A stretch of DNA of 64,000 bases from contig JBGAJA010000001.1 of the NCBI GenBank assembly GCA_044225175.1, positions 206,114 through 270,113 on the forward strand, read 5' to 3'. The notes under the pieces were generated by a model. The model was not told the origin of the DNA and ran no database searches. It saw only the letters and a program-made list of their open reading frames with translations. Of this stretch, positions 9,274 to 40,472 are shown piece by piece. The translations under genes were made by a program, and so were the position numbers. Position 1 is the first letter of the stretch. Every line of letters begins with the position of its first letter. Origin of the DNA: Candidatus Omnitrophota bacterium. Lineage in GTDB: Bacteria > Omnitrophota > Gorgyraeia > Zapsychrales > Fredricksoniimonadaceae.

Positions 9274-9280
9274 GGACATA

Positions 9281-22917: not shown

Positions 22918-23377
22918 AGATAACTCAATTGTGCTTCTTCATGGTGTTTTTACCGAAGGAGCATTAGCCAAAATTAAACATAAAGGTGGAGCTCGTTTAG
23001 TCATATCAGAAGGGCGACCAACTCTTCGTGCGGGCGAGCACAATAGCCGATATTTCTTATCAAAGAAGCTTAAGCCTATTATTATCTGCGACAATATGGC
23101 AGGATCTTTATTTTTTAACGGCTATGTTAAAGAAGTAGTTTTAGCCTGCCAGTATGCTGACAAAACGGGGGCATTATGTGATATGGGTGCACTTATTTTA
23201 GCTGTACTTGCTAAGAAACATAAGGTTGCAATCCGTCTACTTGAAGGTGAACATAAGAAGCATTTCTTAGGTAATCCAAAAGATTTGTTATCGCTCAAAG
23301 GTTCTCCTACGGCATCAGCTAACACGCATGCTTATGCACCGTTAGTGGAATGGGTTCCGATTAAGTATTTTAAATAG
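22904..23377 (+). CDS. N-terminally truncated eIF-2B/MtnA-like paralog
   Basis: 157 aa that align to residues ~150–270 of the adjacent MtnA (VISEGRP..., IICDNMAGSLF...). The N-terminal domain and the C-terminus are missing. Overlaps mtnA by 14 nt in a different frame. Confidence 0.45.
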   Translation: MLEFKDNSIVLLHGVFTEGALAKIKHKGGARLVISEGRPTLRAGEHNSRYFLSKKLKPIIICDNMAGSLFFNGYVKEVVLACQYADKTGALCDMGALILAVLAKKHKVAIRLLEGEHKKHFLGNPKDLLSLKGSPTASANTHAYAPLVEWVPIKYFK

Positions 23378-24581: not shown

Positions 24582-26075
24582 ATGAGCACAACAACTGTAC
24601 AACAATTTGAATTATTACTCGAAGGCAAAATCAGTGCGCCTATGTCGGGGAAGTATTTTGACTGTGTGAATCCCTCCAATGGAGAGGTGTTTGCGCGTTT
24701 GGCTGATGCAGGAGAGTTGGATGCTGAAATTGCTATTCAAGCGGCTCGTTTGGCTTTTGACCACGGAAATTGGCCCAAGTTGTCTTTGCAAGAACGTGGG
24801 GCTTTTTTAGTCAAGATAGGACAAGCGATTCGTGAGCATGCCAAAGAATTGGCTGATTTGGAATGTGCCTCTACGGGAAAAACGATTAAACATGCAACAT
24901 TCATTGATGTGCCTACTGCAGCGGAAACATTTGAATATTTTGGTTCTTTGAAAGATGCCCATTTAGGCAAGGAAACACTTAAGCTGAGTGCTCCTTTAGA
25001 CTCTGTGATTGAACGGGAGCCCATGGGTGTGGTGTCTTTGATTATTCCTTGGAACTATCCTTTGATTATGGCAGCCTGGAAAATGGCTCCCGCGCTTTTG
25101 GCTGGAAACACAATCATTCTTAAACCTTCTTCCACAGCCTGTGTGGCAATCATGGCGCTTGCCAAGTTGATTGCTCAGGTGGGATTACCAAAGGGAGTCA
25201 TCAACATTATTTCTTCCACATCTGCTTCTGTGAAGGACATGATATCAAGTGCCCCGTCGGTGGATATGGTTTCTTTTACAGGCGGGACAGACACGGGAAG
25301 TAAGATTATGGCCCAAGCAGCCAAGAGCGTTAAGAAACTGGGGCTTGAATTAGGCGGCAAGTCAGCCAATATTGTCTTTGCAGACTGTGATATGGATGTC
25401 GCAATTGGGGGAGCTTTATCAGGTATCTTTATGAATCAAGGACAGATGTGTACGGCTGGTTCCAGGCTTCTAGTTGAAGATAAGATTTACAAAGCTTTTG
25501 TAGAGAAGTTGGTTGAACGTGCAAAGTCCTTGAAGATTGGTCCAGCGGATCAATTCGAGACTGAATTTGGTCCTTTGGTGAGTGTGGCGCATAGAGATGG
25601 CGTGTTAAAGATGATAGAGGCTGCCATTAAAGCAGGAAATAAGCTAGCCTGTGGGGGTCAAATACCGACGGGGAACATGGTAGGAGCTTATCTGGAGCCG
25701 ACGATATTTGTTGACGTCAAAAACAATGCTGCTATTGCCCAGGAAGAGGTTTTTGGCCCGGTACTATGTGTTATGCCTTTTACTAGTTCGGATGAAGCTA
25801 TTCATCTAGCTAACGATTCTAAGTATGGCTTAGCCGCCATGATTTGGACTAAAGATTTGGACAAAGCCAATGCTGTTGCCCGTAAGCTTCGTTGTGGAAC
25901 AGTGTGGATTAATACTTATGGGGCTTTCCCTAATGAAGCTCCTTTTGGTGGATGCAAACAAAGCGGTTTCGGTCGCGATTTAGGTAAGGATGGATTGCTC
26001 GAGTTTACACAAGTGAAACATATTGCCATTGATCAGACGCCTGGAGGGAAGTCTCTTGTGACTTCATGGTTTTGA
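24582..26075 (+). CDS. NAD(P)-dependent aldehyde dehydrogenase
   Basis: ELGGKSANIVF (catalytic Glu) and GQMCTAGSRLLV (catalytic Cys). 497 aa. Confidence 0.85.
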   Translation: MSTTTVQQFELLLEGKISAPMSGKYFDCVNPSNGEVFARLADAGELDAEIAIQAARLAFDHGNWPKLSLQERGAFLVKIGQAIREHAKELADLECASTGKTIKHATFIDVPTAAETFEYFGSLKDAHLGKETLKLSAPLDSVIEREPMGVVSLIIPWNYPLIMAAWKMAPALLAGNTIILKPSSTACVAIMALAKLIAQVGLPKGVINIISSTSASVKDMISSAPSVDMVSFTGGTDTGSKIMAQAAKSVKKLGLELGGKSANIVFADCDMDVAIGGALSGIFMNQGQMCTAGSRLLVEDKIYKAFVEKLVERAKSLKIGPADQFETEFGPLVSVAHRDGVLKMIEAAIKAGNKLACGGQIPTGNMVGAYLEPTIFVDVKNNAAIAQEEVFGPVLCVMPFTSSDEAIHLANDSKYGLAAMIWTKDLDKANAVARKLRCGTVWINTYGAFPNEAPFGGCKQSGFGRDLGKDGLLEFTQVKHIAIDQTPGGKSLVTSWF

Positions 26076-26146
26076 CTAAGCAAGTTTGAAGCAGTAACGA
26101 TTTACATAGTAACGACATTTATTAAATGGATCAAAAGGAGAACAGT

Positions 26147-27625
26147 ATGATTAAAAAAGTATTATTTCTAACCCCACCATTGAAAGCTTGGGATTCTCAT
26201 GGATTCCATAGAGCAGCAAATCAAATGCATGCTCAAGTTGCTGCCTATGTACGTCAGCAAAATAAGGTTGAAGTTGAAGCTCTTGATTGCCGTGCGCTTG
26301 ATATGGACTGGGATGCGATGATTGCCAAGATTGGTGAGAGCAAACCTGATATCGTCTTTGTAGGCGATCAACTGTTTTCAACCCTTGGAGCTGCTGTTAT
26401 CTGGTATTTCAACGAAGCATTGCGTTTGATTAAGGCTAAATATCCGCAAATTACAACTGTTGCTAGCGGTCTTTGGTATTCTGCTGATTATGATCGTCAA
26501 ATGAGATTGAATCCTGCAATCGATTACATCTTAATCGGTGAAGGTGAACTTACATTAGAAGAGTTGATTAACAATCTCAATAACAAAACAAAAGATATGC
26601 GTGAGATTCCAGGACTTGTACACCGTCCTGATGCCAATACAATTGTCGTCGGTCCTCATCGTGGATTAATTCCAGATTTGAATAAGCTTCCAATGCCAGC
26701 CTATGAATTATTCCCAATGGATAAATATGTAGGACATACCTATTGGAAACCTTTCGCAGAATTGATGACATCTCGTGGTTGTCCAGGCAAATGCCATTTT
26801 TGTTATGAATGGGCTTTGTATGATAGTCGTTCTGCAACTCAAGACTTCACATCCTGGAGAGGTTTATCAGGAAAACGTATTGTTGATGAATTAGATATCT
26901 TGGAACAAAAATATGGCGTCGTGACTGTTGTTATGCAAGACGATGCATTTAATAGTGATACTAAGGCGATGATCGAATTCTGTGAAGAAAAAATCAAGCG
27001 CGGAAACAAAATCGGCTGGGTGTGTCTAGGTCGTGCGGATCAATGGATTTCTCAACAAGAGATTCTTCCTTTGATGAGAAAAGCAGGTTTATTTATGGCC
27101 TTAACTGGTGTTGAAGTGGAAGATGATAAAACTTTATCAAAGACAGGTAAGGGTGTGACTGTTGATCAAATTAAGAAAACTATTCAATTATTGCGTGCTC
27201 AAAATATTGGAACAGTAGGTACGGTTCTAATTGGTTTGAAAGATGATACCGAAGAAAAGATCAAGAAGCGTTTACAAACCGCTGATGAAATTGATCCAGA
27301 CGTATTTGCTTTGGATTATTTGACCCCAGTTCCTAACTCACCAGATTGGCGTTATGGAATTCAAAAGAAATGGTTTGATCCTGAAACAATCAATTTGAAA
27401 GACTGGGATTTTCAACATCCAGTTATTCCAACGGATCATTTATCTGTTGAAGATGTGGGTCGTTTAGGGGCATGGTGTATGCGTGAGTATTATTCCAAGC
27501 CAGAGAGAATTCATCGCATCATGGAAAGCGATTATGATATTCGCGTCAAATTGTGCGTAAAAGATTTCATGAATAATATTTCCAAATGGGAAGCTAATTC
27601 AAGAGTAGAAGCTTCAGCTAGTTAA
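26147..27625 (+). CDS. B12-binding domain radical SAM protein
   Basis: N-terminal cobalamin-binding Rossmann region. Radical-SAM cluster motif CPGKCHFC (Cx3Cx2C). The start is set at the ATG with RBS aaaggag; the ORF tracker's ORF starts at 26126. Confidence 0.75.
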   Translation: MIKKVLFLTPPLKAWDSHGFHRAANQMHAQVAAYVRQQNKVEVEALDCRALDMDWDAMIAKIGESKPDIVFVGDQLFSTLGAAVIWYFNEALRLIKAKYPQITTVASGLWYSADYDRQMRLNPAIDYILIGEGELTLEELINNLNNKTKDMREIPGLVHRPDANTIVVGPHRGLIPDLNKLPMPAYELFPMDKYVGHTYWKPFAELMTSRGCPGKCHFCYEWALYDSRSATQDFTSWRGLSGKRIVDELDILEQKYGVVTVVMQDDAFNSDTKAMIEFCEEKIKRGNKIGWVCLGRADQWISQQEILPLMRKAGLFMALTGVEVEDDKTLSKTGKGVTVDQIKKTIQLLRAQNIGTVGTVLIGLKDDTEEKIKKRLQTADEIDPDVFALDYLTPVPNSPDWRYGIQKKWFDPETINLKDWDFQHPVIPTDHLSVEDVGRLGAWCMREYYSKPERIHRIMESDYDIRVKLCVKDFMNNISKWEANSRVEASAS

Positions 27626-27641
27626 TCAAGGAAGGTAGAAC

Positions 27642-27905
27642 ATGGTTAGTGTACAAACAACAATGGCGTGGGAACCAACAGCATTAGCAAAATTTAATAA
27701 AATGCTGAATTTGATTCCTATTTTCCATAGAGGTATTGCAAAGGAAGTCGTCAACATCAAAGCTGAGCAAAATGCTAGAGAGAGAAAGAGTTCTCAGGTT
27801 GAGGAGAAGGATATTGTGGAAGCTTTCACCTCAGAAGTTCCAAAGGCATTTTATAGCTTGATGATTCGAATTATGGATGAAGTGGGATTGGATTATAAAA
27901 AATGA
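27642..27905 (+). CDS. PCP_red-like small protein (resembles the protochlorophyllide reductase BchB C-terminal domain)
   Basis: WEPTALAKFNKMLNLIPIFHRGIAKEVV resembles the PCP_red domain start (W.E.A...L.KIP.F.R). Confidence 0.4.
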   Translation: MVSVQTTMAWEPTALAKFNKMLNLIPIFHRGIAKEVVNIKAEQNARERKSSQVEEKDIVEAFTSEVPKAFYSLMIRIMDEVGLDYKK

Positions 27906-28924
27906 AAATCGTTGTTATTGGAGCTGGTGCAATTGGTGGTTGTGTCGCCGCTTATTTAAAAAAAGCGGGCGAAGACGTTCTTTTGATTGGTCATGAGGAT
28001 CAGGTGGAGGTGATTAATCGAAAGGGGCTTACAATCACAGGTGTTCGTGGCACAGAAACGATTCGTATTCCTGCAGCTTTGAAAATGATGGAATATGCAG
28101 ACTTGGTTATTTTTGCGGTTAAGACCCAAGATATGGAAGAAGCTTATGCGGCTAATGCCGATTTTCTTGATAATGGCTTAGTGTTAACAAGTCAAAATGG
28201 TGTTCAAGCGGATAATCTTTTGAGCTCTCATTTTGATCAAACGCGTCAATTATCAAGCATCGTCATGTTTGGTGCAACATACATTAAGCCAGGTGAGATA
28301 GTCTTTAATTTTGAAGGAGACTGGATAGTTGGAAAACCTTTTTCACCAGTTGATCCAACAACTCATAAGGTCATTGAAGTTTTAAACAGAGCTTTTAAAG
28401 TTATACTCAGTACTGATATTACAGGGATGAAGTATTTAAAACTCTTTGTGAATTTCAATAATTGTATCCCAGCTTTAGTTGGCAAAAGCATGCAAGAAAC
28501 CTTTGCTGATATGGATTTGTGTCGATTGAGCATTTTGCTTCTTCAAGAAGGATTAAGTATTATTAAAGATGCAAAGATAGAGCTTACCTCTATGCCTAAC
28601 TTTGAAAAAGAAAAACTCTTTGGTTTAGCGGCATTACCAATCGAGCAATCAGCTGCCATTATGAATAAAACATTAACTACATTAAGCAAGGAACCGCTCT
28701 ACGGTTCGATCTTGCAAAGTATTATGCGTGGAAAAACGAGCGAGATCGATTTTATTAATGGGGAAGTGGTTCAATTAGCTAAACATTTGCATTTGAAAGC
28801 ACCATTGAATGAAAAGATTGTGGATATGGTGCATGAGGTTGAGCGAACAGGGAAATATTTTACGATTGATCAGGTTAAAAATGCATTTAACGTAGGGGCG
28901 GGTTCTAAACCCGCCCTAACATAG
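27902..28924 (+). CDS. Ketopantoate reductase (ApbA/PanE)-family oxidoreductase
   Basis: N-terminal MKIVVIGAGAIGG Rossmann motif. 340 aa with the ApbA C-terminal helical domain. Confidence 0.7.
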   Translation: MKIVVIGAGAIGGCVAAYLKKAGEDVLLIGHEDQVEVINRKGLTITGVRGTETIRIPAALKMMEYADLVIFAVKTQDMEEAYAANADFLDNGLVLTSQNGVQADNLLSSHFDQTRQLSSIVMFGATYIKPGEIVFNFEGDWIVGKPFSPVDPTTHKVIEVLNRAFKVILSTDITGMKYLKLFVNFNNCIPALVGKSMQETFADMDLCRLSILLLQEGLSIIKDAKIELTSMPNFEKEKLFGLAALPIEQSAAIMNKTLTTLSKEPLYGSILQSIMRGKTSEIDFINGEVVQLAKHLHLKAPLNEKIVDMVHEVERTGKYFTIDQVKNAFNVGAGSKPALT

Positions 28925-28950
28925 GGGCAGGTTTAGAACCTGCCCCTACG
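28892..28950. repeat. Two tandem, near-identical palindromic units straddling the stop codon (REP-like)
   Basis: Unit 1 is taggggcgggttctaaacccgccctaac (inside the CDS end). Unit 2 is taggggcaggtttagaacctgcccctac (12-bp perfect stem), immediately 3' of the stop. No T-tract. Confidence 0.55.
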
Positions 28951-28966
28951 ATATGGGGGAAATAAA

Positions 28967-29431
28967 ATGGCCAAAACCGCTGAACAATTAGGATTTAAAC
29001 GTACCTCTTGGATTCCTGATTATTGGAATGACACACAAATTGAAATTTTTAAAGGCATTGATGAGCATTGGGATCTTTTAATCAACAAGAAGGTTGATGA
29101 GTTTATCAAGTACATTCATCCTTCGATGATTGGATATGGTCATGAAAGTCCTGTCCCGGTTGATTATGGCTGGTTAAATAAATGGGTTGGGTTTTGGACG
29201 AAGAGTACCAATATTGCAATCGCTGAGCTTCGTCCAACACAGATTGTTTTGCACGGAGATATTGCGATCGTTCAATATCTAATTTTCACGGTAGAGGTTA
29301 ATGCCGAGGGTGGCAAACGTGTCATCCGTCGCTATACCATGACATGGAAGAAAACCAATCAACCAGGATATCCTGCTTGGCAAGTCATTGGAAGTCATAA
29401 TAATTTGATGGACGAGACCCTAAAAGGTTAA
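28967..29431 (+). CDS. NTF2-like (SnoaL/DUF4440-like) protein
   Basis: ~150 aa α+β pattern with conserved W/Y/H residues typical of the NTF2 superfamily. Fold assignment is tentative. Confidence 0.4.
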   Translation: MAKTAEQLGFKRTSWIPDYWNDTQIEIFKGIDEHWDLLINKKVDEFIKYIHPSMIGYGHESPVPVDYGWLNKWVGFWTKSTNIAIAELRPTQIVLHGDIAIVQYLIFTVEVNAEGGKRVIRRYTMTWKKTNQPGYPAWQVIGSHNNLMDETLKG

Positions 29432-29494
29432 AAAGGGTCGAAGCCCGCCGAAGCCAAACGTGAAAACATTTTGGCGAAGGTGGGGGAAAAATAT

Positions 29495-30772
29495 ATGGAG
29501 TATAGTATGAATAAAAAACGTCGTGTAGTAATTACTGGAGTTGGAATTGTGGCTCCCAATGGAATCGGCAATGACGCCTGTTTTTCAGCCATGATTAAAG
29601 GTGTATCTGCGATTCGTCGTGTCACCGAATTTGACGTCTCCATCTTCAATACAAAGATTGCGGCACAAGTTTTGGACTTTGACCCAATTGCTTTAGGTCT
29701 ATCTTTCGAAGAAGCAATTCGTATGGATCGCTATGTTCAGTTTGCCTGCGTGGCAGCACGAATGGCGCTGGAAGATTCGAAGTTAAGCTTGAATGCTGTG
29801 AATAAAGATCGCATTGGTGTTTCTTTGGCGAATGCGATTTGTGGAACCAAGTATATGGAAGAAGAGTTTGCGCTTGTGACTGATAGCGGGACAAAGCCTA
29901 TTAATCCTGCCATTGTTCGTCCTGATCTTTATGATGCAGCGATGTTTAATACTCCATCAAGTGAACTTTCTGCTAAGTATGGTTTAAGAGGTGTTTGCAA
30001 TACGATTTCGACGGGCTGTACAGCTGGAACAGATTCTGTTGGATTTGCAATGGAGACGATTCTAGATGGAGATGCAGACATTATGCTCTGTGGAGCAGCA
30101 GAAGCGCCCATTACTCCGATCACATTTGGTGCCTTTGATACGGTGAACGTTTTATCTGTCCATAACGATGAGCCAGCAAAGGCTTCTCGTCCATTTGATA
30201 ATAAGAGAAATGGCTTTGTGATTTCAGAAGGTGCGGGGGTTTTAGTTGCTGAAGAATTAGAACATGCCCTTAAACGCGGTGCTCGTATTTATTGTGAGAT
30301 CACAGGCTTTGGGACAACATGCAATGCCTATCACATGACAGATCTTCCTCCAGAAGGTGATGCTATGGCAGATAGCATTACACTTGCAATGGATGATGCT
30401 GGAATTAAGGCAGAGCAGATTGATTACATCTCAGCTCATGGTTCTTCAACTCGACAGAATGATACCTTTGAAACAAGTGCTTACAAAATGGCATTAGGGC
30501 CCCAAGCGTATAAGATTCCGATCTCTTCTGTTAAATCCATGATTGGACATCCCCTAGCAGGTGCAAATGGGATCGAATTAGCTCTCAGTTCATTAATGTT
30601 TGAGCGTAATATTTTACCGCCAACGATCAATCAGGAAGAAAAAGATCCTACATGCGATTTGAATTACATTCCTAATAAGGCGATGGAAAAGAAGGTGGAT
30701 TGTATTTTAAAAACATCCAGCGGGTTCTCCGGAATTCATTCAGCTATGGTGCTGCAACGATATAAGGGGTAA
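29495..30772 (+). CDS. Beta-ketoacyl synthase (KS, catalytically intact)
   Basis: Active-site Cys in ISTGCTAGTDS, His in YISAHGSST and MIGHPLAGAN. The ORF tracker's ORF begins at a TTG at 29471. I use the ATG at 29495, which is preceded by aaggtggggg. Confidence 0.8.
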   Translation: MEYSMNKKRRVVITGVGIVAPNGIGNDACFSAMIKGVSAIRRVTEFDVSIFNTKIAAQVLDFDPIALGLSFEEAIRMDRYVQFACVAARMALEDSKLSLNAVNKDRIGVSLANAICGTKYMEEEFALVTDSGTKPINPAIVRPDLYDAAMFNTPSSELSAKYGLRGVCNTISTGCTAGTDSVGFAMETILDGDADIMLCGAAEAPITPITFGAFDTVNVLSVHNDEPAKASRPFDNKRNGFVISEGAGVLVAEELEHALKRGARIYCEITGFGTTCNAYHMTDLPPEGDAMADSITLAMDDAGIKAEQIDYISAHGSSTRQNDTFETSAYKMALGPQAYKIPISSVKSMIGHPLAGANGIELALSSLMFERNILPPTINQEEKDPTCDLNYIPNKAMEKKVDCILKTSSGFSGIHSAMVLQRYKG

Positions 30773-30776
30773 AACT

Positions 30777-31046
30777 ATGTGTTGTCCTACAACTCAACAA
30801 ACAGTTTCATTTTTTAAATCTGTTGAACCTTTGTTTTGGTTGTTTCAAATTCTTATTGTTTCAAACTTGGTTTTTCCAAAAATCTTCTTTGCAACTCAGT
30901 TGAACTGGCTTAATAAGCTTTTAAAATACCAGGGCTTTGAGGCGCATATTACCTTTAGTGAAAAGGCATATAAGATTTGGTATAGAGATTTATGTGTTTT
31001 GTTTTTTTTAAATTTGATTGTTATTGGACTTATACATTTAATTTAG
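30777..31046 (+). CDS. Small hydrophobic ORF between the two KS genes
   Basis: 89 aa with two hydrophobic segments. RBS-like aagggg sits upstream. No homology recognised. Confidence 0.3.
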   Translation: MCCPTTQQTVSFFKSVEPLFWLFQILIVSNLVFPKIFFATQLNWLNKLLKYQGFEAHITFSEKAYKIWYRDLCVLFFLNLIVIGLIHLI

Positions 31047-31057
31047 GGGCTTAATTA

Positions 31058-32290
31058 ATGGAAAAAATTGCAATTACAGGTTTAGGAGTCATTTCTCCTT
31101 CAGGGATAGATAAGCGTCAGTTTTGGGCTAATATCAAAGCAGGACGTTCAACGGTTGAGAAGATTGAGCGTTTTGATGCATCTTTATATCCTTCACGCAT
31201 TGCTGGTCACGTCAAAGAGTTGGATGCATACAGCAATGTTTCATCTCGGTTACTTAAAAAGATTGATTTGTTTTCTCATATGGCACTTGTTGCTTCCGAA
31301 ATGTGTTTAGCGGATGCCAAGATCAATCTTTCAGAAGAAGATTTGAAACGTGTGGGAATCTTTATGGGCAATGCTTTGGGTGGATGGTTGTATGCTGAAA
31401 CGGAGCTTCGGGATATGTATCTTGAAGGAAGAGAAGGTGTTAGTCCTTTCATGGCTTCCGCCTGGTTTCCAGCAGCTCCTCAAGGACAGATTTCTATTCA
31501 TTATGGAATCAAAGGGTACAGTAAGACTATTGTTGCTGATCGAGCGAGCTCTTTGATGGCCATTGCCTATGCAGCTAAGACAATTAATCGTGGTAAATGT
31601 GATTTTATCTTGGCAGGTGGTATGGAAGCGCCTGTTACCCCTTATGCATTACTATGTTGTGTCACGTCGGGGACATTGTCTTTGAATAACAATAATCCAC
31701 ACAGTGCTTACCGACCTTTTGATAAGAATCGTGATGGATTGGCCATTGCTGAAGGTGCTGGTGTTTTGACATTAGAACCTCAATCACGTGTTGCTAAACG
31801 TGGCGCTCATGTGTATGCCAATATTATTGGTTATGGAACAACGACAGATGCAACCAATCGCATTGATCCATCTGGCGATGGTCATCAATTAGCGCGTGCA
31901 ATTAAAATAGCTTTGGATGACGCAAAGCTTGCTCCATCAGACATTGATTACATTTGTGCTGATGGCGCAGGAACAATCCTTGGAGATATTACAGAGACCA
32001 AGGCAATCAAAGAGGCGTTTGGTCCCGTTGCTTATAAGATTCCTGTGTCAGCACCTAAGTCTATCTTTGGAAATATGCTTGGAGCCTGTGGAGCGTTAGA
32101 TGTGATTACAACCCTCTTGGCTATGGAACACAGTATGGTGCCGCCAACAATTAATTATCAAACACCAGATCCAGAATGTGATTTGGATTACGTGCCTAAT
32201 AAAGCTCAAGAGAAGACTATCAAAAATGCCATGATCATTAATCGTGGTCGTGGTGGGATTAATTGCGTTTTAATTTTACAGAAAGGTTAA
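31058..32290 (+). CDS. KS-like partner lacking all three catalytic residues (chain-length-factor-like)
   Basis: Aligned to the upstream KS, the Cys position reads IVADRASSL (C→R), the first His reads YICADGAGT (H→D), and the second His reads IFGNMLGA (H→N). Confidence 0.75.
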   Translation: MEKIAITGLGVISPSGIDKRQFWANIKAGRSTVEKIERFDASLYPSRIAGHVKELDAYSNVSSRLLKKIDLFSHMALVASEMCLADAKINLSEEDLKRVGIFMGNALGGWLYAETELRDMYLEGREGVSPFMASAWFPAAPQGQISIHYGIKGYSKTIVADRASSLMAIAYAAKTINRGKCDFILAGGMEAPVTPYALLCCVTSGTLSLNNNNPHSAYRPFDKNRDGLAIAEGAGVLTLEPQSRVAKRGAHVYANIIGYGTTTDATNRIDPSGDGHQLARAIKIALDDAKLAPSDIDYICADGAGTILGDITETKAIKEAFGPVAYKIPVSAPKSIFGNMLGACGALDVITTLLAMEHSMVPPTINYQTPDPECDLDYVPNKAQEKTIKNAMIINRGRGGINCVLILQKG

Positions 32291-32292
32291 TT

Positions 32293-32535
32293 ATGGAAAC
32301 ACAAACAGATTTAGAAAATAAAGTTAAGGGGATTTTAAAGAAGGTCTTGGATGTCAAGGACAGTGAAATTATTCCAGGCGCCAAACTAGATGAGTCGCTC
32401 GGAATTGATTCTACAGAAATGGTTGAGATTTCTGTTTCTATAAAGAAGGAATTGGGAGTTGCTTTAAAAGATAATGAGCTAAAGAAGACTCATTCTTTGA
32501 ATGAAATCGTTAGTATTTTAAAGTCTAAGGGCTAA
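32293..32535 (+). CDS. Acyl carrier protein
   Basis: 80 aa with LGIDSTEMVE, the phosphopantetheine-attachment Ser motif. Start trimmed to the ATG after the KS-like stop. Confidence 0.75.
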   Translation: METQTDLENKVKGILKKVLDVKDSEIIPGAKLDESLGIDSTEMVEISVSIKKELGVALKDNELKKTHSLNEIVSILKSKG

Positions 32536-32624
32536 GGGAGTATTAAGTGGACTTAATTAATTTTGATAAAAACAGGAATTTAGACGAGTTGGAGTTAGCG
32601 GGGGGAATAGAAAGACGGGGGTCT

Positions 32625-32984
32625 ATGATGTCCCGATCTACCAAGCTTAGACAAATACCTGTAAAGAAATTAACTACGGAAGAATTACGTCTGATGATTG
32701 TGCAAAATAGAAGTTTGAGATTTTTGGTTCCACTTGCAATTGAACGTTTGCTAGATGATTCAATGCTCAAAGGAGATCAATACGCAGGCGATTTGACAAA
32801 TGCAGTATTAACGATTGAGAAAAAGTTTTGGGCAGGTGATTTGAATGGCTACGTTCCTATGCTTAATTCTATTATTGAAAAAGCACAAAAAATAGCAGAA
32901 GAGAATCCAAAGGATTATGAAGGTTTCTTTCAGCACACCTCTCATGCGATTAAACTTTTTAAAGCAAACACGAGTGAGCTATGA
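32625..32984 (+). CDS. Hypothetical protein
   Basis: ORF with plausible start MMSRSTKL preceded by gacggggg. No domain recognised. Confidence 0.4.
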   Translation: MMSRSTKLRQIPVKKLTTEELRLMIVQNRSLRFLVPLAIERLLDDSMLKGDQYAGDLTNAVLTIEKKFWAGDLNGYVPMLNSIIEKAQKIAEENPKDYEGFFQHTSHAIKLFKANTSEL

Positions 32985-33352
32985 AGGGTCGAATCCAAGA
33001 TCTCAATTTAGTTGAACTCAAAGACATCAAGATTAAAGATGTTGTTCTTAATGAATTTAATATTGAGATTGTTTTCGAAGGTGATCACTCTCTTGTCATT
33101 GAAGAATATTGGGAATATGTGGATGAAAAAGAACAAGTGATCGATAGGCAGTTAAGCTCTAAGTTCAGAAAAGAATTTAAGTTGAAAGAAGTGGTGGGTA
33201 GCCAATTTATCAAATTGAGTAAAGTGTTAGAAACGTTTTATTTCGGTTTTAGTAATAAGAACTCTTTAAAAGTTTCTGCTCCCGATTTTGAATTTATGAA
33301 TTTAGATCATTATAAAGCCTTTGGTGATGATAGTGCGCCGTCAGGAGTTTAA
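32981..33352 (+). CDS. Hypothetical protein
   Basis: 123 aa, overlapping the upstream ORF by 4 bp. No domain recognised. Confidence 0.4.
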   Translation: MKGRIQDLNLVELKDIKIKDVVLNEFNIEIVFEGDHSLVIEEYWEYVDEKEQVIDRQLSSKFRKEFKLKEVVGSQFIKLSKVLETFYFGFSNKNSLKVSAPDFEFMNLDHYKAFGDDSAPSGV

Positions 33353-33354
33353 AT

Positions 33355-34158
33355 ATGACAATAATTGATTTAAGTCTTCCTATTGATGATAGCTTGATTG
33401 AAACGCATGCGGCTACAATTGAGCGTATCACTCATAAGGCTGGGGTTGAACATTTTAATTGGGTAGTCATGAAAAATCAGCCGGGTGGGCAGGAGCGTTT
33501 TGATAAGGGTGAACGTGTGGCCACTGCGCAAGAGATTCCTGATGGCGAGATGTTGTCATTAGAAATTGTGAATTCTTCTGTCCACATGGGTTCTCATGTG
33601 GATGCTCCTTTTCATTATGGAAGCACATGTGAGGGGAAACCTGCCAAGCAAATCATGGATGTTCCGCTCGAATGGTGTTATGGTCCAGGTGTTGTTTTAG
33701 ATTTCACTCATTTAAAATTTCCTGATGCAATCGGCCGCAAAGAAGTTGAAGGGGCTCTCACCAAAATTAATTATAAGCTTAAGCCAATGGACATAGTTCT
33801 TCTCTATACAGGAGGTGACAAGCTTCTTGGTACAGATGATTACGTAAATAAATATGTCGGCTGTACGCCTGATGCGATTGAGTTTTTGCTTGATCAAGGA
33901 ATTAAGATGATTGGCGTAGATACAATCGGTTTAGATCGTCCATGTTTTTTAATGTTCAAAGAATTTTTAAGTACTAAAGACAAGAGTAAGATTTGGCCGT
34001 GCCATTTCTTAGGTCGCAGACGTGAATATTGTCATATGGAACGTTTAGGAAATTTAGGTGCGATTCCTAAGCCTTTTGGATTTACAGTTTCATGTTTGCC
34101 TGTGAAGGTTCGTAATGCTGGTGCAGGTTGGAGTCGAGTGGTGGCTTTAATCAACTAA
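33355..34158 (+). CDS. Cyclase-family protein (PF04199, kynurenine formamidase / polyketide cyclase type)
   Basis: Metal-binding motif HMGSHVDAPFHY (HxGTHxDxPxH), the family signature. Confidence 0.7.
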   Translation: MTIIDLSLPIDDSLIETHAATIERITHKAGVEHFNWVVMKNQPGGQERFDKGERVATAQEIPDGEMLSLEIVNSSVHMGSHVDAPFHYGSTCEGKPAKQIMDVPLEWCYGPGVVLDFTHLKFPDAIGRKEVEGALTKINYKLKPMDIVLLYTGGDKLLGTDDYVNKYVGCTPDAIEFLLDQGIKMIGVDTIGLDRPCFLMFKEFLSTKDKSKIWPCHFLGRRREYCHMERLGNLGAIPKPFGFTVSCLPVKVRNAGAGWSRVVALIN

Positions 34159-34169
34159 GGGAGAAAATT

Positions 34170-34751
34170 ATGAGACATCTGATTTTAATTTTGGCAGTCG
34201 TTTTGGTTTCAGGGAATGTCTGGGCTGAGAATAACGAATTTAAAGGTTATAGAGTAGATCGAATAGAAAAAGTTAAGGCGCACCGTCTTGAACAAAAAGC
34301 TGAGAACAAAGACTTTCGTTCCACTCTTAAAGATAAAAGCAAAGAAGAGCGAATGGAGGCTGTTCATTCTCATCGTTTGAACCAACATACAGAAAATATT
34401 GAAAAGCATAAAATTATGCATGAACAACAGATGGCTAGATTAAAAGAAGAATTAGCTAAGAAAGAAAATCTCACTCAAGCACAAAAAGATGAAATTCTTA
34501 ACAAGCGTGAAGCTCAATTTCAAGAAAAGTTACAACATCATCAACAGCAATTCTCTGAGAATAAAGCTTTTGCAGAGAAAATATCTGCTGAAGACATGAA
34601 TTCTCAAGAACGCAAGGATGCTTGGAAGGCTCATATGGAGGAACAAAAGTCGGAAAATAAAACCTTTCGCCAAAACGCCATGTTAGAAATGAAAGCCAAG
34701 CGTCAGCAAATGCATAATGATATGAAAGCTACCAGAAAAGATGTGAAGTAA
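34170..34751 (+). CDS. Secreted K/E/H-rich coiled-coil protein with repeated HRL.Q motifs
   Basis: Signal peptide MRHLILILAVVLVSGNVWA, RBS aagggag. Low-complexity charged repeats with many His. Confidence 0.5.
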   Translation: MRHLILILAVVLVSGNVWAENNEFKGYRVDRIEKVKAHRLEQKAENKDFRSTLKDKSKEERMEAVHSHRLNQHTENIEKHKIMHEQQMARLKEELAKKENLTQAQKDEILNKREAQFQEKLQHHQQQFSENKAFAEKISAEDMNSQERKDAWKAHMEEQKSENKTFRQNAMLEMKAKRQQMHNDMKATRKDVK

Positions 34752-34767
34752 TATTAAAGGAGGAGTT

Positions 34768-35217
34768 ATGGGTCATACTGTTAATTCAATAGTCATTAAT
34801 GCGCCATACGAGTTGGTTTTTGATGTTTCTAATCATATTGAACGTTGGACTGAGTTGTTTGGTAAGGAATACGCAAGTGCAGATGTTTTAGAGCGTAAAG
34901 GAAATGAGATCACATTTCGTTTAACTGATGAAGATAAGAAATCTTGGGTATCTAAGCGTTGGTTATACAAAGATTTGAAGTTTGCTTATGCGCAGCGTCA
35001 TGATCCTTTGTTTCCTTTTATTTATATGAAGATTGTTTGGTTGTATCAAGAAACGCCAGAAGGAATCAAGATGACATGGATCCAAGATTTTGAAATGGAT
35101 CCTAAGTTTACAAAATTTACGGCCGAGCAAATTGAAGGGTTTGTGAATGAACATTCACAGCATAACATGAAAATTTTTAAGAAGGTGATTGAAGCAGAAG
35201 CCCATGCTGTTAAATAA
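34768..35217 (+). CDS. SRPBCC-superfamily protein (polyketide cyclase/dehydrase-like, TcmN ARO/CYC type)
   Basis: ~150 aa with pattern SIVINAPYELVFDVSNHIERW typical of Polyketide_cyc2/SRPBCC. Confidence 0.6.
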   Translation: MGHTVNSIVINAPYELVFDVSNHIERWTELFGKEYASADVLERKGNEITFRLTDEDKKSWVSKRWLYKDLKFAYAQRHDPLFPFIYMKIVWLYQETPEGIKMTWIQDFEMDPKFTKFTAEQIEGFVNEHSQHNMKIFKKVIEAEAHAVK

Positions 35218-36346
35218 CAATCGACGTTTGATTCTGTTTTATTTTTGTTGTGCCAATATTTTAATCTCGTTTAACATTTCAGCTCTGATTGCAACTGTTC
35301 CGGCCATCGCGCGCTCTTTGGATGTGGATGCAGGAGATGTGGCAGGTATTGTAACTTACTACATGATTCCTTATGGATTATGTGCGCTGGGATTTGTACC
35401 TTTAGCTTGCAGGTTTTCGATTAAATCGCTGTTGATCTTTTCTGCTAGTCTTTTTTCCTTAGGCAATTGGATATGCTTATGGTCAGATTCTTTAACAGTG
35501 ATCATGGCGGGGCGAATTCTATCGGGAATTGCGGCAGCTGCCGTTACTCCTTTAGGTTTAATTACCTTAGGTAAGATTTTTCCAACGCATTTGCGGGGGA
35601 GAGTCATTGGAATATTCTTTAGTTCAGCATTCTTTGGTTCGATCTTTGGCTTAATTCTTAGTGCCGTTGCTCATTGGCATTGGCAATTTATTATTCCCTT
35701 TTGGCTGGGGCTGATCTTAGCTATTGGTTTATTTTTTTGTCCCAAGGATGGAATGGAGGCGCATTCGGTTAAAGTTGATTATTTTGATGCTTTTCGTATC
35801 CCAGGATTACGTAGATTGCTGGTTCTCATATTCTTTATGAGTTTGTTCTTTCATGGTGTGGTTAAGTGGTATGGGGTTTATTTGGATAAGATCTATAGTT
35901 ACAGCCAAGTAACTATTAGTGGTTTGATAATTCTGACAGCTTTTGCTTCAATGTTGGGTCAATTAATTGGAGGGATCATTACAGATAAGCTTGGTCGTTT
36001 GTACTCTTGTTATATAGGAACTGGATTATTAGGTTTGTGTGTTGTGGCGTTGTATTGGCAATATTCTTTTTTGATTTTAAGTATTGTGTTTTGTTTAATT
36101 TCAGTTGGTTGGACGATAGCACATAACGGTATATCAACAGTGCTTACGGATTTCTCAGATAAGTTTCGCATGGAACTTGCAGCGCTTAATTCAGCGGTTA
36201 GATTTTTTAGTGGAGGTTTGGGGTTTTGGCTGAGCGGAAATTTTGTACAGCGTAATTTTGGTCTTACATTTTTAATGATTGGAATATTGATGTTGACCCA
36301 AATGTTGTTTATTTCGAAAATTGTTTCACAACGAAAGGAAAGTTAA
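35204..36346 (+). CDS. MFS transporter
   Basis: About 12 predicted transmembrane helices. Overlaps the previous gene end. Confidence 0.65.
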   Translation: MLLNNNRRLILFYFCCANILISFNISALIATVPAIARSLDVDAGDVAGIVTYYMIPYGLCALGFVPLACRFSIKSLLIFSASLFSLGNWICLWSDSLTVIMAGRILSGIAAAAVTPLGLITLGKIFPTHLRGRVIGIFFSSAFFGSIFGLILSAVAHWHWQFIIPFWLGLILAIGLFFCPKDGMEAHSVKVDYFDAFRIPGLRRLLVLIFFMSLFFHGVVKWYGVYLDKIYSYSQVTISGLIILTAFASMLGQLIGGIITDKLGRLYSCYIGTGLLGLCVVALYWQYSFLILSIVFCLISVGWTIAHNGISTVLTDFSDKFRMELAALNSAVRFFSGGLGFWLSGNFVQRNFGLTFLMIGILMLTQMLFISKIVSQRKES

Positions 36347-37131
36347 TGTCACATGTATCTGTTGATTTGAAGGGTAAGGTTGCTGTGATCACTGGTGCAA
36401 GCCGTGGGATAGGTAAGGCCATCGCAACGCGTTTGGCTGAGCATGGAGCTAGCCTGGTCTTAGCGGCGCGTTCACAGGGGCCTTTGGATGCGACGGTGAA
36501 TGAGTTAAAGGATAAGTATGGGGTTCAAGCGATTGGTGTTTCTTGTGATGTGGCTAAATTAGATCAACTTCAGAATTTGGTTGCTAAAGCTAAAGCGCAA
36601 TTTAAACAAATTGACATCTTAGTGAATGTTGCTGGTGTATCTAGTCAATATCCTTTTCATGAACAACCGATCGAAGACTTTGAAATGTTAGCTCATATCA
36701 ACTATTTGGGTTATGTGCGTTTGATTCGCTTGATTATTCCTGATATGGTGGCTCGTCGTGATGGTCATTTGATCAATGTGGTTTCTGGTTCAACCTTAGT
36801 CGACCCAATTCCTCGTGGATTTTTAACCTATAGTTCCTTGAAGATGGGTTTGCGTGCATTTCTTAAAGGTCTCTTTTGGGAAATGCGTGAACACAATATT
36901 AAAGTAACATCTTTGCTTCCTGGAGTTGTAGCCTCCGATTTGACTGACCATCTTAAGGATGTGGCGGTGACTCAGCGTGACCGTCTTATGGATCCAGTTG
37001 CGGTTGCAGATATGGTCAGCTTTGCTTTGTCAGTTCCAGCTAATGCTTGCCCGCTTGAATTGGCTGTAATCAATCAGTTGACGACTTGGACTAAGCCGAT
37101 TATTGATTATAAGCAAACCCAAGCAAAGTAG
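36346..37131 (+). CDS. Short-chain dehydrogenase/reductase (SDR, ketoreductase-like)
   Basis: VAVITGASRGIGKAIA cofactor-binding motif. 261 aa. Confidence 0.8.
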   Translation: MSHVSVDLKGKVAVITGASRGIGKAIATRLAEHGASLVLAARSQGPLDATVNELKDKYGVQAIGVSCDVAKLDQLQNLVAKAKAQFKQIDILVNVAGVSSQYPFHEQPIEDFEMLAHINYLGYVRLIRLIIPDMVARRDGHLINVVSGSTLVDPIPRGFLTYSSLKMGLRAFLKGLFWEMREHNIKVTSLLPGVVASDLTDHLKDVAVTQRDRLMDPVAVADMVSFALSVPANACPLELAVINQLTTWTKPIIDYKQTQAK

Positions 37132-37165
37132 GGCAGAACAACTTGATCTTGTAAAGGAGTGATGC

Positions 37166-37399
37166 ATGGATAAAACCGTTGCTACATTTCAAAAAAACAA
37201 GTTTCAACAAGTTCATGTAGGGATTAGAGAGTTTAAAGGAAATGATTTGGTGGATATTCGAGTGTTTACACAGCTGCAGGGATCGAATCATATGGTGGCC
37301 ACAGCTAAAGGAATTAGTATTAATGTCCATCTGGTGCCAGAATTAAGAAAAGCTTTGGAAGAAGTAGATCGTCTGTTAAGAGAAGAGAAAATGTTATGA
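37166..37399 (+). CDS. PC4-like (transcriptional coactivator p15 fold) ssDNA-binding protein
   Basis: VGIREFKGNDLVDIRVF...AKGISINV matches the PC4 C-terminal domain consensus. Confidence 0.6.
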   Translation: MDKTVATFQKNKFQQVHVGIREFKGNDLVDIRVFTQLQGSNHMVATAKGISINVHLVPELRKALEEVDRLLREEKML

Positions 37400-38304
37400 C
37401 CATTGATTCACACAGTCATTTTATGCCACCAGCTGTTGCTCAAAAGACCGCGTTCTTTAAAGAGCATTGGTCAGATGTTGATAAACATCTTAAGTTGATG
37501 GATGATCATCATGTTAATCAATCGCTGCTTTTATATCCAACCAGCGACGCGCATATCAATATGGGGGGATGGAAGAATCTTTGCGATGTTTATAATCGTG
37601 AGCTTTCTCAAATTGTTCATAAATATCCCAATCGTTTTATTGGAGCTGGAATTTTACCTATTGATTCTCCTGATGACATTCTCAAAGAATTAAAACGCAT
37701 TGAAGACTTGGGATTAAAAGTAATTTCATTGGCATCCAGTTATGATGGAATTTATTTGGATGATCCAAAATTCTTTCAGATTTATGAGTTCGCCAAGTCA
37801 AAGAAAATGCCCATCCATGTACATCCTCAAATCATGAACCCTATTGGGTTTGAACGCGTGCAAGACCCATTATTAAGTCCTGTTTTAGAGTATGTATTCG
37901 ATGTTTCTATGTGTATTGGAAAGATGATGATGTCAGGTGTCTTTTTAAAATACCATGACGTTAATTTCATTTTTGCTCATTATGGAGGAGTGCTTCCAAT
38001 TGTAAAGGAGCGCTTCGATGCTACGTACGCAATGCTCAGACGACGAAACTTTGTAAAAGACATTACTAAATTTCCAAGCGAATTTTTTTCGAATTTATAT
38101 TTTGATACCAGTGGTTCAAAATCCAAGGCCTCATTATTGGCTGCATTAGAGTTAACGGACTGCCACCATATATTGTGGGGGTCTGATTTTCCAGCGAATC
38201 AAAATTTCAAAGATTCCCTCGGTGTAATCAGTAATACCGTGCTTTCTGTGCAAGAACGTAACTCATTATTTGGCTATAATTTTGCACGCCTCATGGAAAA
38301 ATAA
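37396..38304 (+). CDS. Amidohydrolase-2 family metal-dependent hydrolase/decarboxylase (ACMSD-like)
   Basis: N-terminal IDSHSHFMPP metal-binding His pair. TIM-barrel amidohydrolase_2 pattern. Confidence 0.65.
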   Translation: MTIDSHSHFMPPAVAQKTAFFKEHWSDVDKHLKLMDDHHVNQSLLLYPTSDAHINMGGWKNLCDVYNRELSQIVHKYPNRFIGAGILPIDSPDDILKELKRIEDLGLKVISLASSYDGIYLDDPKFFQIYEFAKSKKMPIHVHPQIMNPIGFERVQDPLLSPVLEYVFDVSMCIGKMMMSGVFLKYHDVNFIFAHYGGVLPIVKERFDATYAMLRRRNFVKDITKFPSEFFSNLYFDTSGSKSKASLLAALELTDCHHILWGSDFPANQNFKDSLGVISNTVLSVQERNSLFGYNFARLMEK

Positions 38305-38445: not shown

Positions 38446-39989
<1,544 letters not shown>

Positions 39990-40180
39990 TATTCTATTAC
40001 AGGATAGAAACGAAAATTTCATCGTCAACGAAATGTTTAAGCATAATAAGTAAATCAAGATCTTCTCTTTGAAGTTCTTGGCTTTCAAAAATTTTAGAAC
40101 TGCTCGTTGAAACAATGAGCGATCATTGTTTCAACGGGTTTGTTTTCCAAGTGGTCAATCCACTGGCTAAGCCGTATAAC

Positions 40181-40254: not shown

Positions 40255-40264
40255 TTTATTTCGA

Positions 40265-40341: not shown

Positions 40342-40472
40342 TTTTTTATACGGACTAAATGAATGAACAATAGATGTTAAGCATAGATTTGGATCTCGTT
40401 ACTGACGAGATCGACATGCTCTTTGACAATTATGAAATATAGGGTAATACAATTTCGAGTAGTTTTCGTGTT

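Follow-up and report, generated by a model that had tools for sequence, protein, structure and literature searches.

We analyzed a group of ketosynthase (KS) and tailoring genes that look like a dissociated (type II) polyketide synthase (PKS). The genes lie in a 64,000-nucleotide stretch of DNA, here called the window, from Candidatus Omnitrophota (GenBank assembly GCA_044225175.1, contig JBGAJA010000001.1, positions 206,114 to 270,113). The host lineage belongs to the PVC group, as an earlier note made from the sequence had proposed, and the named close homologues all come from metagenome-assembled genomes (MAGs) called "Candidatus Omnitrophota" or "Candidatus Omnitrophica". The earlier note had placed thirteen genes of a minimal type II PKS plus tailoring enzymes within 14 kb on one strand. 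We found all thirteen on the + strand, at or near the positions it gave. Open reading frames (ORFs) of at least 100 amino acids in the window were scanned with Pfam and NCBIfam models, and scores were compared with the family cut-offs. The scan confirmed the families that had been listed, except for two labels (PCP_red and DUF4440) whose matches were below threshold. Five ORFs in the same range had been overlooked (the 89-aa hydrophobic, CdiI_3 immunity-like, 123-aa, Lys/Glu-rich and PC4-like ones listed below).

The genes of the cassette form a single co-directional block on the + strand that ends at an rRNA operon. The PKS genes, the tailoring genes that accompany them most widely, and the rRNA operon are:

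27642..27905, + strand: small four-helix PCP_red/DUF2621-like protein, 87 aa (sub-threshold Pfam matches)
27902..28924, + strand: ApbA/PanE-family NAD(P)H oxidoreductase (ApbA 104 bits, ApbA_C 58 bits)
29507..30772 (ORF from 29471), + strand: KS1, catalytic ketosynthase of KSα type with an STGCTAG motif (Cys-His-His)
31058..32290, + strand: KS2, chain-length-factor-type partner of the "ADRAS" type (Arg/Asp/Asn)
32293..32535 (ORF from 32263), + strand: discrete acyl carrier protein (ACP) with a G-I-D-S-T motif (PP-binding 36.6 bits)
33355..34158, + strand: PF04199 metal-dependent "cyclase" (Cyclase 100.6 bits)
34768..35217, + strand: monodomain TcmN/WhiE-type aromatase/cyclase (ARO/CYC) of the SRPBCC fold (PDB matches WhiE and TcmN)
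36346..37131, + strand: classical short-chain dehydrogenase/reductase (SDR), FabG-like (adh_short 170 bits, KR 57 bits)
37396..38304, + strand: Amidohydro_2 protein of the ACMSD/LigW/γ-resorcylate decarboxylase family (77.5 bits)
38446..43605, + strand: rRNA operon (16S at 38446-39988, tRNA-Ile, tRNA-Ala, 23S, 5S), directly downstream of the cassette

Our results support the assignment of KS1 as a KSα-type ketosynthase and not a FabF. KS1 has an intact Cys-His-His triad (TGC...AHGSST...GHPLAG), as had been noted before. Its true start is likely at 29507, because homologues measure 418-422 aa. Among proteins of known structure, KS1 scored highest with the actinorhodin KSα (389 bits), followed by Photorhabdus AntD (348 bits) and FabF (at most 343 bits), and it fell below the fabF equivalog cut-off of TIGR03150 (445 bits vs. 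493.75). We searched 1.8 billion representatives of 50% identity clusters exhaustively. The nearest representatives were metagenomic KSs (47-52% identity), and one of these clusters has members that JGI names "minimal PKS KSα". Next came a Streptomyces cluster (44%; including S. glaucescens) with the UniRef name putative tetracenomycin ketosynthase 1, and then a Laceyella KSα; FabF-type sequences came later. Among proteins of annotated plasmids, the closest were a type II PKS KS of Azospirillum brasilense (49%) and KSs of Streptomyces (47-48%).

The partner gene, KS2, lacks all catalytic residues, again in agreement with the earlier note. The triad positions are occupied by Arg, Asp and Asn (ADRASS...ADGAGT...GNMLGA), and the same residues were present in 4 of 4 aligned orthologues, including that of the window. 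Streptomyces chain-length factors (CLFs) carry Gln at the Cys position, and the Gln of canonical CLFs decarboxylates malonyl-ACP for priming. This Gln is absent from KS2, which has Arg (Lys in locus L073; L-numbers label the loci compared). The "ADRAS" Arg is common to KS2 and to the partner KSs of Azospirillum and Bacillus bombysepticus. Judging by these sequences, Arg at this position is a variant feature of non-actinobacterial systems. In the orthologous loci, the KS1 and KS2 genes adjoin or overlap each other. KS2 was also below the fabF equivalog cut-off (TIGR03150; 406 bits vs. 493.75). Both KSs pass a broad "beta-ketoacyl-ACP synthase II" subfamily model (NF005589).

Phylogeny of the KSs against FabF had been named as a test of the PKS proposal, and the proposal held up. 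We built a neighbor-joining (NJ) tree of 40 sequences from Kimura-corrected p-distances (300 bootstraps), with PGAP-annotated CLFs and named FabF anchors included. The KS1 family was recovered with 100% bootstrap support and grouped with KSα-type enzymes at 92%, and the FabF anchors were separate (92%). The KS2 family joined the proteins annotated as "ketosynthase chain-length factor" at 100%. These placements come from a distance tree and not a maximum-likelihood tree.

The ACP and the two cyclase-type proteins are also of the kind expected for a type II PKS. The ACP, which likely starts at 32293, has its phosphopantetheine-attachment Ser in the G-I-D-S motif, is below every NCBIfam cut-off for fatty acid synthase (FAS) ACPs, and is 32-91% identical across loci. 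The SRPBCC protein, called TcmN-like in the earlier note, gave weak Pfam matches. Against solved structures it matched the WhiE ARO/CYC (3TL1; 91.6 bits, E = 3.8e-25) and TcmN (2RER; 90 bits) over its full length with ~40% identity. The alignment with WhiE and TcmN keeps the Trp, Tyr and Ser-x-Arg positions, which we take to be the catalytic residues of TcmN. No match to ZhuI-type or didomain aromatases was found in the PDB search, and identity to the didomain protein of Azospirillum was 23%. The aromatase is 52-66% identical to its counterparts in other phyla.

The PF04199 protein was the most conserved of the cassette genes (68-93% identity across Omnitrophota, 46-51% in other phyla). It carries the motif reported earlier, HxG[ST]HxDxPxH, with Ser in place of the Thr that had been written (H-M-G-S-H-V-D-A-P-F-H). 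The protein is 49% identical (E = 3e-70) to a "cyclase family protein" encoded beside the KS pair of a type II PKS cluster on a B. bombysepticus plasmid. We considered a kynurenine formamidase (KynB) of tryptophan metabolism, the kind of unrelated enzyme that would have spoken against the PKS proposal, and rejected it: the score with TIGR03035 was 48.6 bits vs. a cut-off of 223, and the gene lies within the PKS cassette in all phyla examined. The PF04199 enzyme is a candidate later-ring cyclase or hydrolase.

The Amidohydro_2 protein belongs to the decarboxylase-containing family to which it had been assigned. Its PDB matches were ACMSD (74 bits), LigW (69 bits) and γ-resorcylate decarboxylase (62 bits), and it has an N-terminal D-S-H-S-H motif. 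It is core in all phyla (42-49% identity) and is a putative non-oxidative decarboxylase of an aromatic acid.

Two reductases accompany the PKS genes. The SDR is a core tailoring reductase, 47-59% identical in other phyla. Its best PDB matches were generic FabG and gluconate dehydrogenase proteins (~100 bits), and none of the 60 SDR matches listed was an entry named for the actinorhodin ketoreductase (KR). The ApbA protein scored 161 bits with TIGR00745 (subfamily cut-off 141), and its best PDB match was a Thermococcus ketopantoate reductase (91 bits). The ApbA gene belongs to the cross-phylum core, is always upstream of KS1, and is 45-49% identical in Dehalococcoidia and Syntrophia-type loci.

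We found that the cluster does not stand alone: synteny at this locus is conserved over many Omnitrophota, and Dehalococcoidia and Syntrophia-type MAGs have the cluster too. A scan with KS2 of one genome per GTDB species gave 80 loci. Approximately 65 were from Omnitrophota, many of them under the ENA placeholder title "uncultured Planctomycetales". Approximately 14 were more distant (60-66% identity) and carried Dehalococcoidales/Dehalococcoidia, Syntrophaceae, Syntrophobacter or Planctomycetia labels, together with one divergent Omnitrophota. In ~65 species-level genomes of Omnitrophota the order is PCP_red-like–ApbA–KS–CLF–ACP–cyclase–ARO/CYC–SDR–decarboxylase-like. A presence matrix showed that ApbA, KS1, KS2, ACP, cyclase, ARO/CYC, SDR and Amidohydro_2 are core in every lineage examined. 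Three anaerobic lineages (Omnitrophota, Dehalococcoidia-labelled MAGs and Syntrophia-type MAGs) have kept these genes together as one unit. Because synteny is conserved in ~75 independent genomes, the gene set is more than a chance association.

The PKS genes are the most conserved genes of the block. Within Omnitrophota, identities were 71-93% for KS1 and 68-93% for the cyclase, vs. 54-80% for the MtnA-like isomerase and 53-81% for the aldehyde dehydrogenase upstream. KS1 keeps 77-92% identity over more than 120 sequence clusters. The rRNA operon lies directly downstream of the cassette, on the same strand, in 6 of 7 long contigs (L015, L041, L047, L050, L063 and L064). Among these genomes and the window, 16S identity is no more than 82-93%, so the arrangement of cassette and rRNA operon has been kept despite divergence at the family to order level. 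Many contigs from MAGs stop just past the amidohydrolase gene, probably as a result of assembly breaks at the rRNA operon.

Some of the other loci had features of their own. L077 (CAWHLK010000043.1), titled "uncultured archaeon", contains the cassette with many frameshifts, and segments of it reach ~93% identity to the window genes. Most likely this is an Omnitrophota contig that was mis-binned and is rich in errors, and we did not count it as archaeal. In the distant clade, a tandem-duplicated Cys-rich TIGR04076 protein (~190 aa) occupies the gap between ApbA and KS1 (L071 4805-5371, L073 8135-8740, L074 8008-8583, L069 3184-3780). This protein and the tungsten-type aldehyde:ferredoxin oxidoreductase (AOR) of that clade are both absent from the window. 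In L074 (Syntrophobacter-labelled), an amine-oxidase-like flavoprotein and an FMN reductase precede the cassette, and a glycyl-radical enzyme with its activase and a second B12-binding radical S-adenosylmethionine (B12-rSAM) enzyme lie 3' of it (14668-19459).

The remaining genes of the block in the window are:

19619..21157, + strand: FadD/4CL-like AMP-forming acyl ligase, first gene of the co-directional block (Pfam AMP-binding 286 bits)
21170..24405, + strand: putative four-gene nucleoside-salvage module resembling a dihydroxyacetone phosphate (DHAP) shunt (Pfam, NCBIfam), made up of the next four genes
21170-21949, + strand: PNP_UDP_1 phosphorylase
21949-22917, + strand: MtnA-like sugar-1-phosphate isomerase
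22904-23377, + strand: 157-aa protein with weak IF-2B similarity
23377-24405, + strand: class II (FucA-like) aldolase with an extra C-terminal half
24582..26075, + strand: NAD(P)-dependent aldehyde dehydrogenase (Aldedh 557 bits)
26126..27625, + strand: B12-rSAM enzyme of the BchE/HpnJ-like group (Pfam B12-binding and Radical_SAM)
28967..29431, + strand: DUF4440 (NTF2-like) protein (24.8 bits vs. a cut-off of 25.2, just sub-threshold)
30777-31046: 89-aa hydrophobic ORF between KS1 and KS2
32547-32984, + strand: CdiI_3 immunity-like gene, a variable insert (CdiI_3 69 bits)
32981-33352, + strand: 123-aa protein without assignment, a variable insert (ORF)
34128-34751: 207-aa Lys/Glu-rich protein (ORF)
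35189..36346, + strand: MFS transporter, drug/H+ antiporter-like, a putative exporter (MFS_1 117 bits)
37166..37399, + strand: PC4-like small protein (PC4 39.9 bits)

A 10-bp hairpin and a promoter-like site lie at 19544-19617, just before the ligase gene. Neighboring genes overlap by 1-4 nt, and there are no strong internal terminators. The hairpin, the promoter-like site and the overlaps suggest that 19619 to 38304 is one transcription unit. Our scan for promoters and terminators found fewer promoter-like sites than in shuffled sequences, and we used it just for the hairpin (19594-19617).

Several tailoring and accessory genes vary between lineages, and the extent of the cluster had been drawn too widely in this respect: the PKS core stands, and the B12-rSAM and DUF4440 genes are accessory or variable. 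The B12-rSAM protein scored 181 bits with the NCBIfam BchE model (cut-off 481) and 135 bits with HpnJ (cut-off 578), so it is related to both the anaerobic Mg-protoporphyrin cyclase and HpnJ and is a member of neither. Its PDB matches were AprD4 and TokK only, each below 50 bits. It may have an accessory role in tailoring, as a C-methylase or as a radical enzyme that forms or rearranges C-C bonds. The gene is cleanly absent from L011, L014, L025, L059, L060 and the Dehalococcoidia loci, and is present in L069, L071 and L074. In five Omnitrophota loci without it, the aldehyde dehydrogenase gene abuts the gene for the PCP_red-like protein.

The PCP_red-like protein is translationally coupled to ApbA (4-nt overlap). 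Its label was reasonable, if not firm. The matches to DUF2621 (25 bits) and PCP_red (19 bits) are both under the Pfam thresholds; an AlphaFold2 model (pLDDT 91.4) had as its two best PDB folds 2L09 and 2KRU, a stand-alone PCP_red-like protein and the PCP_red domain of BchB, with weak scores (E 0.03-0.09, TM 0.41-0.53). We found 363 stand-alone homologues of ~89 aa. The gene persists where the B12-rSAM gene has been lost. It is kept across the Omnitrophota and in a single locus with a Syntrophaceae label; L069 and L071 both have it.

The protein that had been called NTF2/SnoaL-like matches DUF4440 just short of the cut-off. Its gene occurs in about half of the Omnitrophota loci (it is missing, for example, in L001 and L005), and in the distant clade the slot is taken by the tandem TIGR04076 protein. 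The MFS gene was seen in Omnitrophota loci only (37-81% identity, 37-46% in most) and was undetected in others. The PC4-like gene is likewise conserved in Omnitrophota loci only (55-82%). The 89-aa ORF at 30777-31046 has weak translated similarity (36-54%) to sequences at the same position in several close relatives, and it could encode a small membrane protein or be a mere conserved spacer.

The small genes between the PKS genes differ from genome to genome and include CdiI_3 immunity-like, DUF6036/AbiEii, HSDR_N_2, DUF433 plus PIN, and MamF_MmsF types. These variable gaps are at 32547-33352 in the window; at 11270-11873, 13170-14609 and 16507-17160 in L001; at 9025-9411 and 15046-15566 in L003; and at 15860-16572 in L005. 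The CdiI_3 gene and the 123-aa ORF were found in the closest relatives only, and the 32547..33352 insert lies outside the pathway. Defense or toxin-antitoxin-type genes seem to insert repeatedly in the cassette operon and leave it intact.

Taken as a whole, the KSα and CLF groupings, the ARO/CYC and the PF04199 cyclase bear out the proposal of a minimal type II PKS with tailoring enzymes. We consider it likely that the region encodes a genuine dissociated PKS for an aromatic polyketide, in a compact cassette that would work without molecular oxygen. Among the ORFs scanned in the window, there was no oxygenase, FabZ, FabI, FabH or FabD, and no dehydratase, enoyl reductase, malonyl transferase or phosphopantetheinyl transferase (PPTase). 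The missing oxygenases fit the anaerobic hosts.

We propose the following pathway. KS1-KS2 would extend an ACP-bound poly-β-ketone with malonyl units from a housekeeping malonyl transferase, which we invoke because none is encoded in the window. Priming would probably be by a pre-formed acyl starter, because KS2 has Arg where the Gln of canonical CLFs acts on malonyl-ACP; in Omnitrophota, loading of the starter may fall to the FadD-like ligase (19619). The aromatase would close and aromatize the first ring on a poly-β-ketone that is largely unreduced, by analogy to TcmN and WhiE in the C9-C14 mode. The PF04199 enzyme would then close a further ring or release the chain, the ACMSD-like enzyme would remove a terminal carboxylate ortho to a phenol, and the SDR and ApbA proteins would reduce carbonyls. 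Where present, the B12-rSAM enzyme may use radical chemistry to methylate or to form a C-C bond, replacing the oxygenases of aerobes. The MFS protein would export the product.

Several points weigh against this interpretation. The raw score of KS2 is higher with FabF (318 bits) than with the actinorhodin (act) CLF (243 bits) in the PDB, and its grouping with CLFs comes from a distance tree in which long-branch attraction among degenerate KSs is possible. A 2023 catalogue of CLFs calls this pattern of KS2 "type II KS - type II FAS pairing" in non-actinobacteria (PMC10132072). The window ORFs that were scanned lack the PPTase and malonyl transferase that the pathway would use. The SDR is generic and not assignable as a C-9 ketoreductase. 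The ApbA protein passes the ketopantoate reductase subfamily model and might serve CoA or pantetheine supply instead of tailoring. The PF04199 family also includes hydrolases and esterases. A secondary-metabolite cluster would not usually be so highly conserved or so fixed in position at the rRNA operon, and a primary-metabolic role is conceivable on these grounds. For chain length, starter and ring pattern, the proposals are drawn only from analogy.

The part of the block upstream of the cassette could have a different function. The 19619 ligase best matched FadD-type ligases in the PDB (~220 bits) and scored 434 bits with the NCBIfam long-chain-fatty-acid-CoA ligase model (cut-off 476). It is syntenic in L001-L004, L011, L025, L059 and L060, and a 39% identical ligase lies at the 5' end of L074. 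As the earlier note had suggested, it is a candidate starter-activating enzyme. In the next four genes, the phosphorylase is nearer the uridine/DeoD type than the MTAP models, the MtnA-like protein scored 225 bits (equivalog cut-off 279) and passes the eIF-2B_rel subfamily model, and the aldolase scored 121 bits with FucA_Meth. None of the three reaches an NCBIfam equivalog cut-off; the set of families and the gene order are as in the DHAP shunt (MtnP or MtnK, MtnA, Ald2), with a phosphorylase-family protein, an MtnA-like isomerase and a FucA-like aldolase in a row. Unlike the DHAP shunt, the module adds the 157-aa IF-2B-like protein, has the aldehyde dehydrogenase behind it, and has a PKS cassette beside it. 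The 157-aa protein (22904-23377) is weakly like the middle of MtnA and is conserved beside the full-length MtnA-like gene. The class II aldolase (23377-24405) has 342 aa, with a C-terminal half of ~160 aa without assignment.

These putative salvage genes probably form a separate DHAP-shunt-like module kept beside the cassette in Omnitrophota. The aldehyde dehydrogenase, which reaches no NCBIfam equivalog cut-off and is 53-81% identical to its orthologues, is most likely the terminal enzyme of this module; in the earlier note it had been counted with the PKS genes. The 14-kb stretch could thus be two or three conserved neighbors (5'-deoxyadenosine/methylthioadenosine salvage ending in the aldehyde dehydrogenase, the PKS cassette, and inserted defense or toxin-antitoxin-type genes) that merely share an operon-like arrangement in streamlined genomes. 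We hold this reading tentatively, a little on the doubtful side. It fits the cross-phylum core, which leaves out the MtnP-, MtnA-, aldolase and aldehyde dehydrogenase genes, and the small interspersed genes that vary between loci. The module is linked to the cassette in Omnitrophota only, upstream in most loci; in the divergent Omnitrophota L069 it is downstream and ends in a DeoC-type aldolase and a Zn-alcohol dehydrogenase, with no aldehyde dehydrogenase. However, the salvage genes stay beside the cassette in these two arrangements across order-level divergence, and cassettes outside Omnitrophota carry another aldehyde-oxidizing enzyme: in Dehalococcoidia and Syntrophia-type loci, an AOR adjoins ApbA in place of the aldehyde dehydrogenase, which could be its functional counterpart. 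Because of this adjacency and the AOR, a functional tie such as supply of a starter acid is conceivable. CLFs without Gln would need an external starter acid, which the aldehyde dehydrogenase and the ligase could provide. The reading of separate neighbors refines the PKS explanation and does not exclude it.

The other alternatives concern the PKS genes themselves. The KS pair might make a reduced or lipid product such as an aryl polyene, a polyene, a ladderane-like lipid or another unusual fatty acid, and the earlier note had kept aryl polyenes and unusual lipids as alternatives. KS-CLF heterodimers are also used in aryl-polyene and polyene type II systems. The cassette has an SDR and a B12-rSAM enzyme, and antiSMASH has been reported to make "ladderane" calls in MAGs of Omnitrophota (PMC9902471). 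However, the cassette lacks a dehydratase (FabZ/FabA-like), an enoyl reductase, an acyltransferase and lipid-export genes; it has a TcmN/WhiE-type aromatase (E ~1e-25) and a PKS-associated cyclase; KS1 groups with aromatic KSαs; and the B12-rSAM gene is dispensable in several lineages. We therefore rejected aryl polyenes and ladderane-type lipids, and find a product of this class unlikely.

A catabolic role is less probable still. In this case the cassette would degrade phenolic or polyketide-like aromatic compounds anaerobically, with a thiolase-fold KS pair, a reversible decarboxylase and AOR or aldehyde dehydrogenase run in the degradative direction. The hosts are anaerobes, some in aromatic-degrading lineages; AOR-family and ACMSD-family enzymes are common in anaerobic aromatic degradation; and PF04199 members include hydrolases. 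Set against this, CoA-transferase, ring-reductase and β-oxidation genes are not in the cassette, and we know of no catabolic role for a dedicated ACP, a CLF-type partner and a biosynthetic ARO/CYC (~40% identical to WhiE and TcmN).

Least probable of all is that KS1, KS2, ACP and SDR are the housekeeping FAS (FabF paralogues, AcpP and FabG) of a reduced genome, which would explain the conservation of KS1 over its many clusters, the position by the rRNA operon, the NF005589 matches and the FabF matches of KS2, but we rejected it: both KSs are under the fabF cut-off and the ACP under all FAS ACP cut-offs, KS2 lacks all three catalytic residues in every orthologue aligned, KS1 is apart from the FabF anchors, no FabD, FabH, FabZ or FabI is nearby, and the Dehalococcoidia locus L076 has a separate KS only 37% identical to KS1.

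The aromatic type II PKS that we favor can be compared with known systems. The cassette is predicted to work like a non-reducing aromatic type II PKS, with the testable defining features of that class except the CLF Gln. Like the tetracenomycin (Tcm), WhiE and act PKSs of actinobacteria, it has a KSα with Cys-His-His, an adjacent dead partner, a discrete ACP and a monodomain ARO/CYC. Unlike them, its partner has Arg for the priming Gln and is only ~34% identical to Streptomyces CLFs. The cassette has no oxygenases, O-methyltransferases or TcmI/TcmJ-type cyclases, and its tailoring set consists of ApbA, the PCP_red-like protein, the ACMSD-like decarboxylase and an optional B12-rSAM enzyme. The hosts also differ, being uncultured anaerobes, and the locus is conserved over many species-level genomes instead of being sporadic.

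Two uncharacterized plasmid-borne clusters, of Azospirillum brasilense Sp7 (p3) and Bacillus bombysepticus, have the closest KSs among annotated plasmids (48-49% identity). They share the "ADRAS" Arg of the partner KS, and the Bacillus cluster has the 49% identical PF04199-type cyclase. In contrast to the window, they have O2-dependent tailoring enzymes (four ABM monooxygenases; an FAD oxidoreductase) and their own PPTase or AcpS, and they lack ApbA, the PCP_red-like protein, Amidohydro_2 and a radical SAM enzyme. The Azospirillum aromatase is the didomain SRPBCC protein mentioned above.

The anthraquinone (ant) cluster of Photorhabdus luminescens encodes a KS-CLF, an ACP, a KR, an aromatase, a cyclase and a CoA ligase. 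The likeness to it that had been proposed holds for the general type of Gram-negative type II PKS with these components, and AntD was the second-best structure for KS1. In other respects it is loose. The window aromatase is of the TcmN/WhiE type, the SDR is FabG-like and not specifically KR-like, and the block has no AntI-type α/β-hydrolase lyase or AntB PPTase. Among the 60 PDB matches listed for KS2 (all at least 173 bits), the only ant PKS protein was the KS entry 6smo_B. The clostrubin-type type II PKS of a strictly anaerobic Clostridium is a precedent for aromatic polyketides in obligate anaerobes, from a host lineage different from that of the window; it is not known to have accessory genes in common with the cassette.

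The earlier note had called such clusters essentially undescribed in PVC-type lineages. This was slightly overstated: the 2023 CLF catalogue lists Candidatus Omnitrophica and Planctomycetes among phyla with KS-CLF pairs, without characterization (PMC10132072). Our literature searches found no description of the cassette, its conservation or its occurrence in other anaerobes.

Farther out, the window contained other features. A 1601-aa ORF without Pfam or NCBIfam match lies at 14691-19496, between a PadR regulator and the ligase. Proteins with prepilin-type N-terminal methylation motifs flank the region (2495-2896 and 43709-44631). The segment at 47637-63700 looks like a genomic island integrated at a tRNA; after a tRNA-Ser(cga) come an integrase-SAM-like ORF, DUF6161, a protein with a TIR domain (- strand), the antirestriction protein ArdA and then a copper-resistance set (outer-membrane efflux protein, multicopper oxidase, YHS protein, DUF2231, MerR and a Cu P-type ATPase).

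A bolder extension of the PKS interpretation is that the product is an O2-independent aromatic polyketide in a core physiological role (a quinone-like redox carrier, a pigment or an envelope component) common to Omnitrophota, Dehalococcoidia and Syntrophia-type anaerobes. Priming in Omnitrophota would then be fed by the salvage module, from nucleoside to ketose-1-phosphate, aldehyde, acid and acyl-AMP starter. We regard this as rather doubtful; if true, the recycling of radical-SAM by-products would be coupled to polyketide initiation via an Arg-type CLF.

Type II PKSs are known almost entirely from aerobic actinomycetes, and their aromatic products are usually finished by oxygenases. Omnitrophota are an uncultured, largely host-associated phylum of nanobacteria. 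Here the type II core machinery appears as an oxygenase-free cassette with order-level conservation, common to other obligate anaerobes, and its tailoring set is unusual; its conserved place beside the rRNA operon is unlike what is expected of a secondary-metabolite cluster. The KS-CLF pair is a candidate for soluble expression in E. coli, a known bottleneck of actinobacterial type II PKSs. The identity of the product would show how aromatic polyketides can be tailored without O2 (by radical SAM chemistry, non-oxidative decarboxylation and reductases), what role the Arg-type CLF has at priming, and why Omnitrophota hold this locus beside their rRNA operon.

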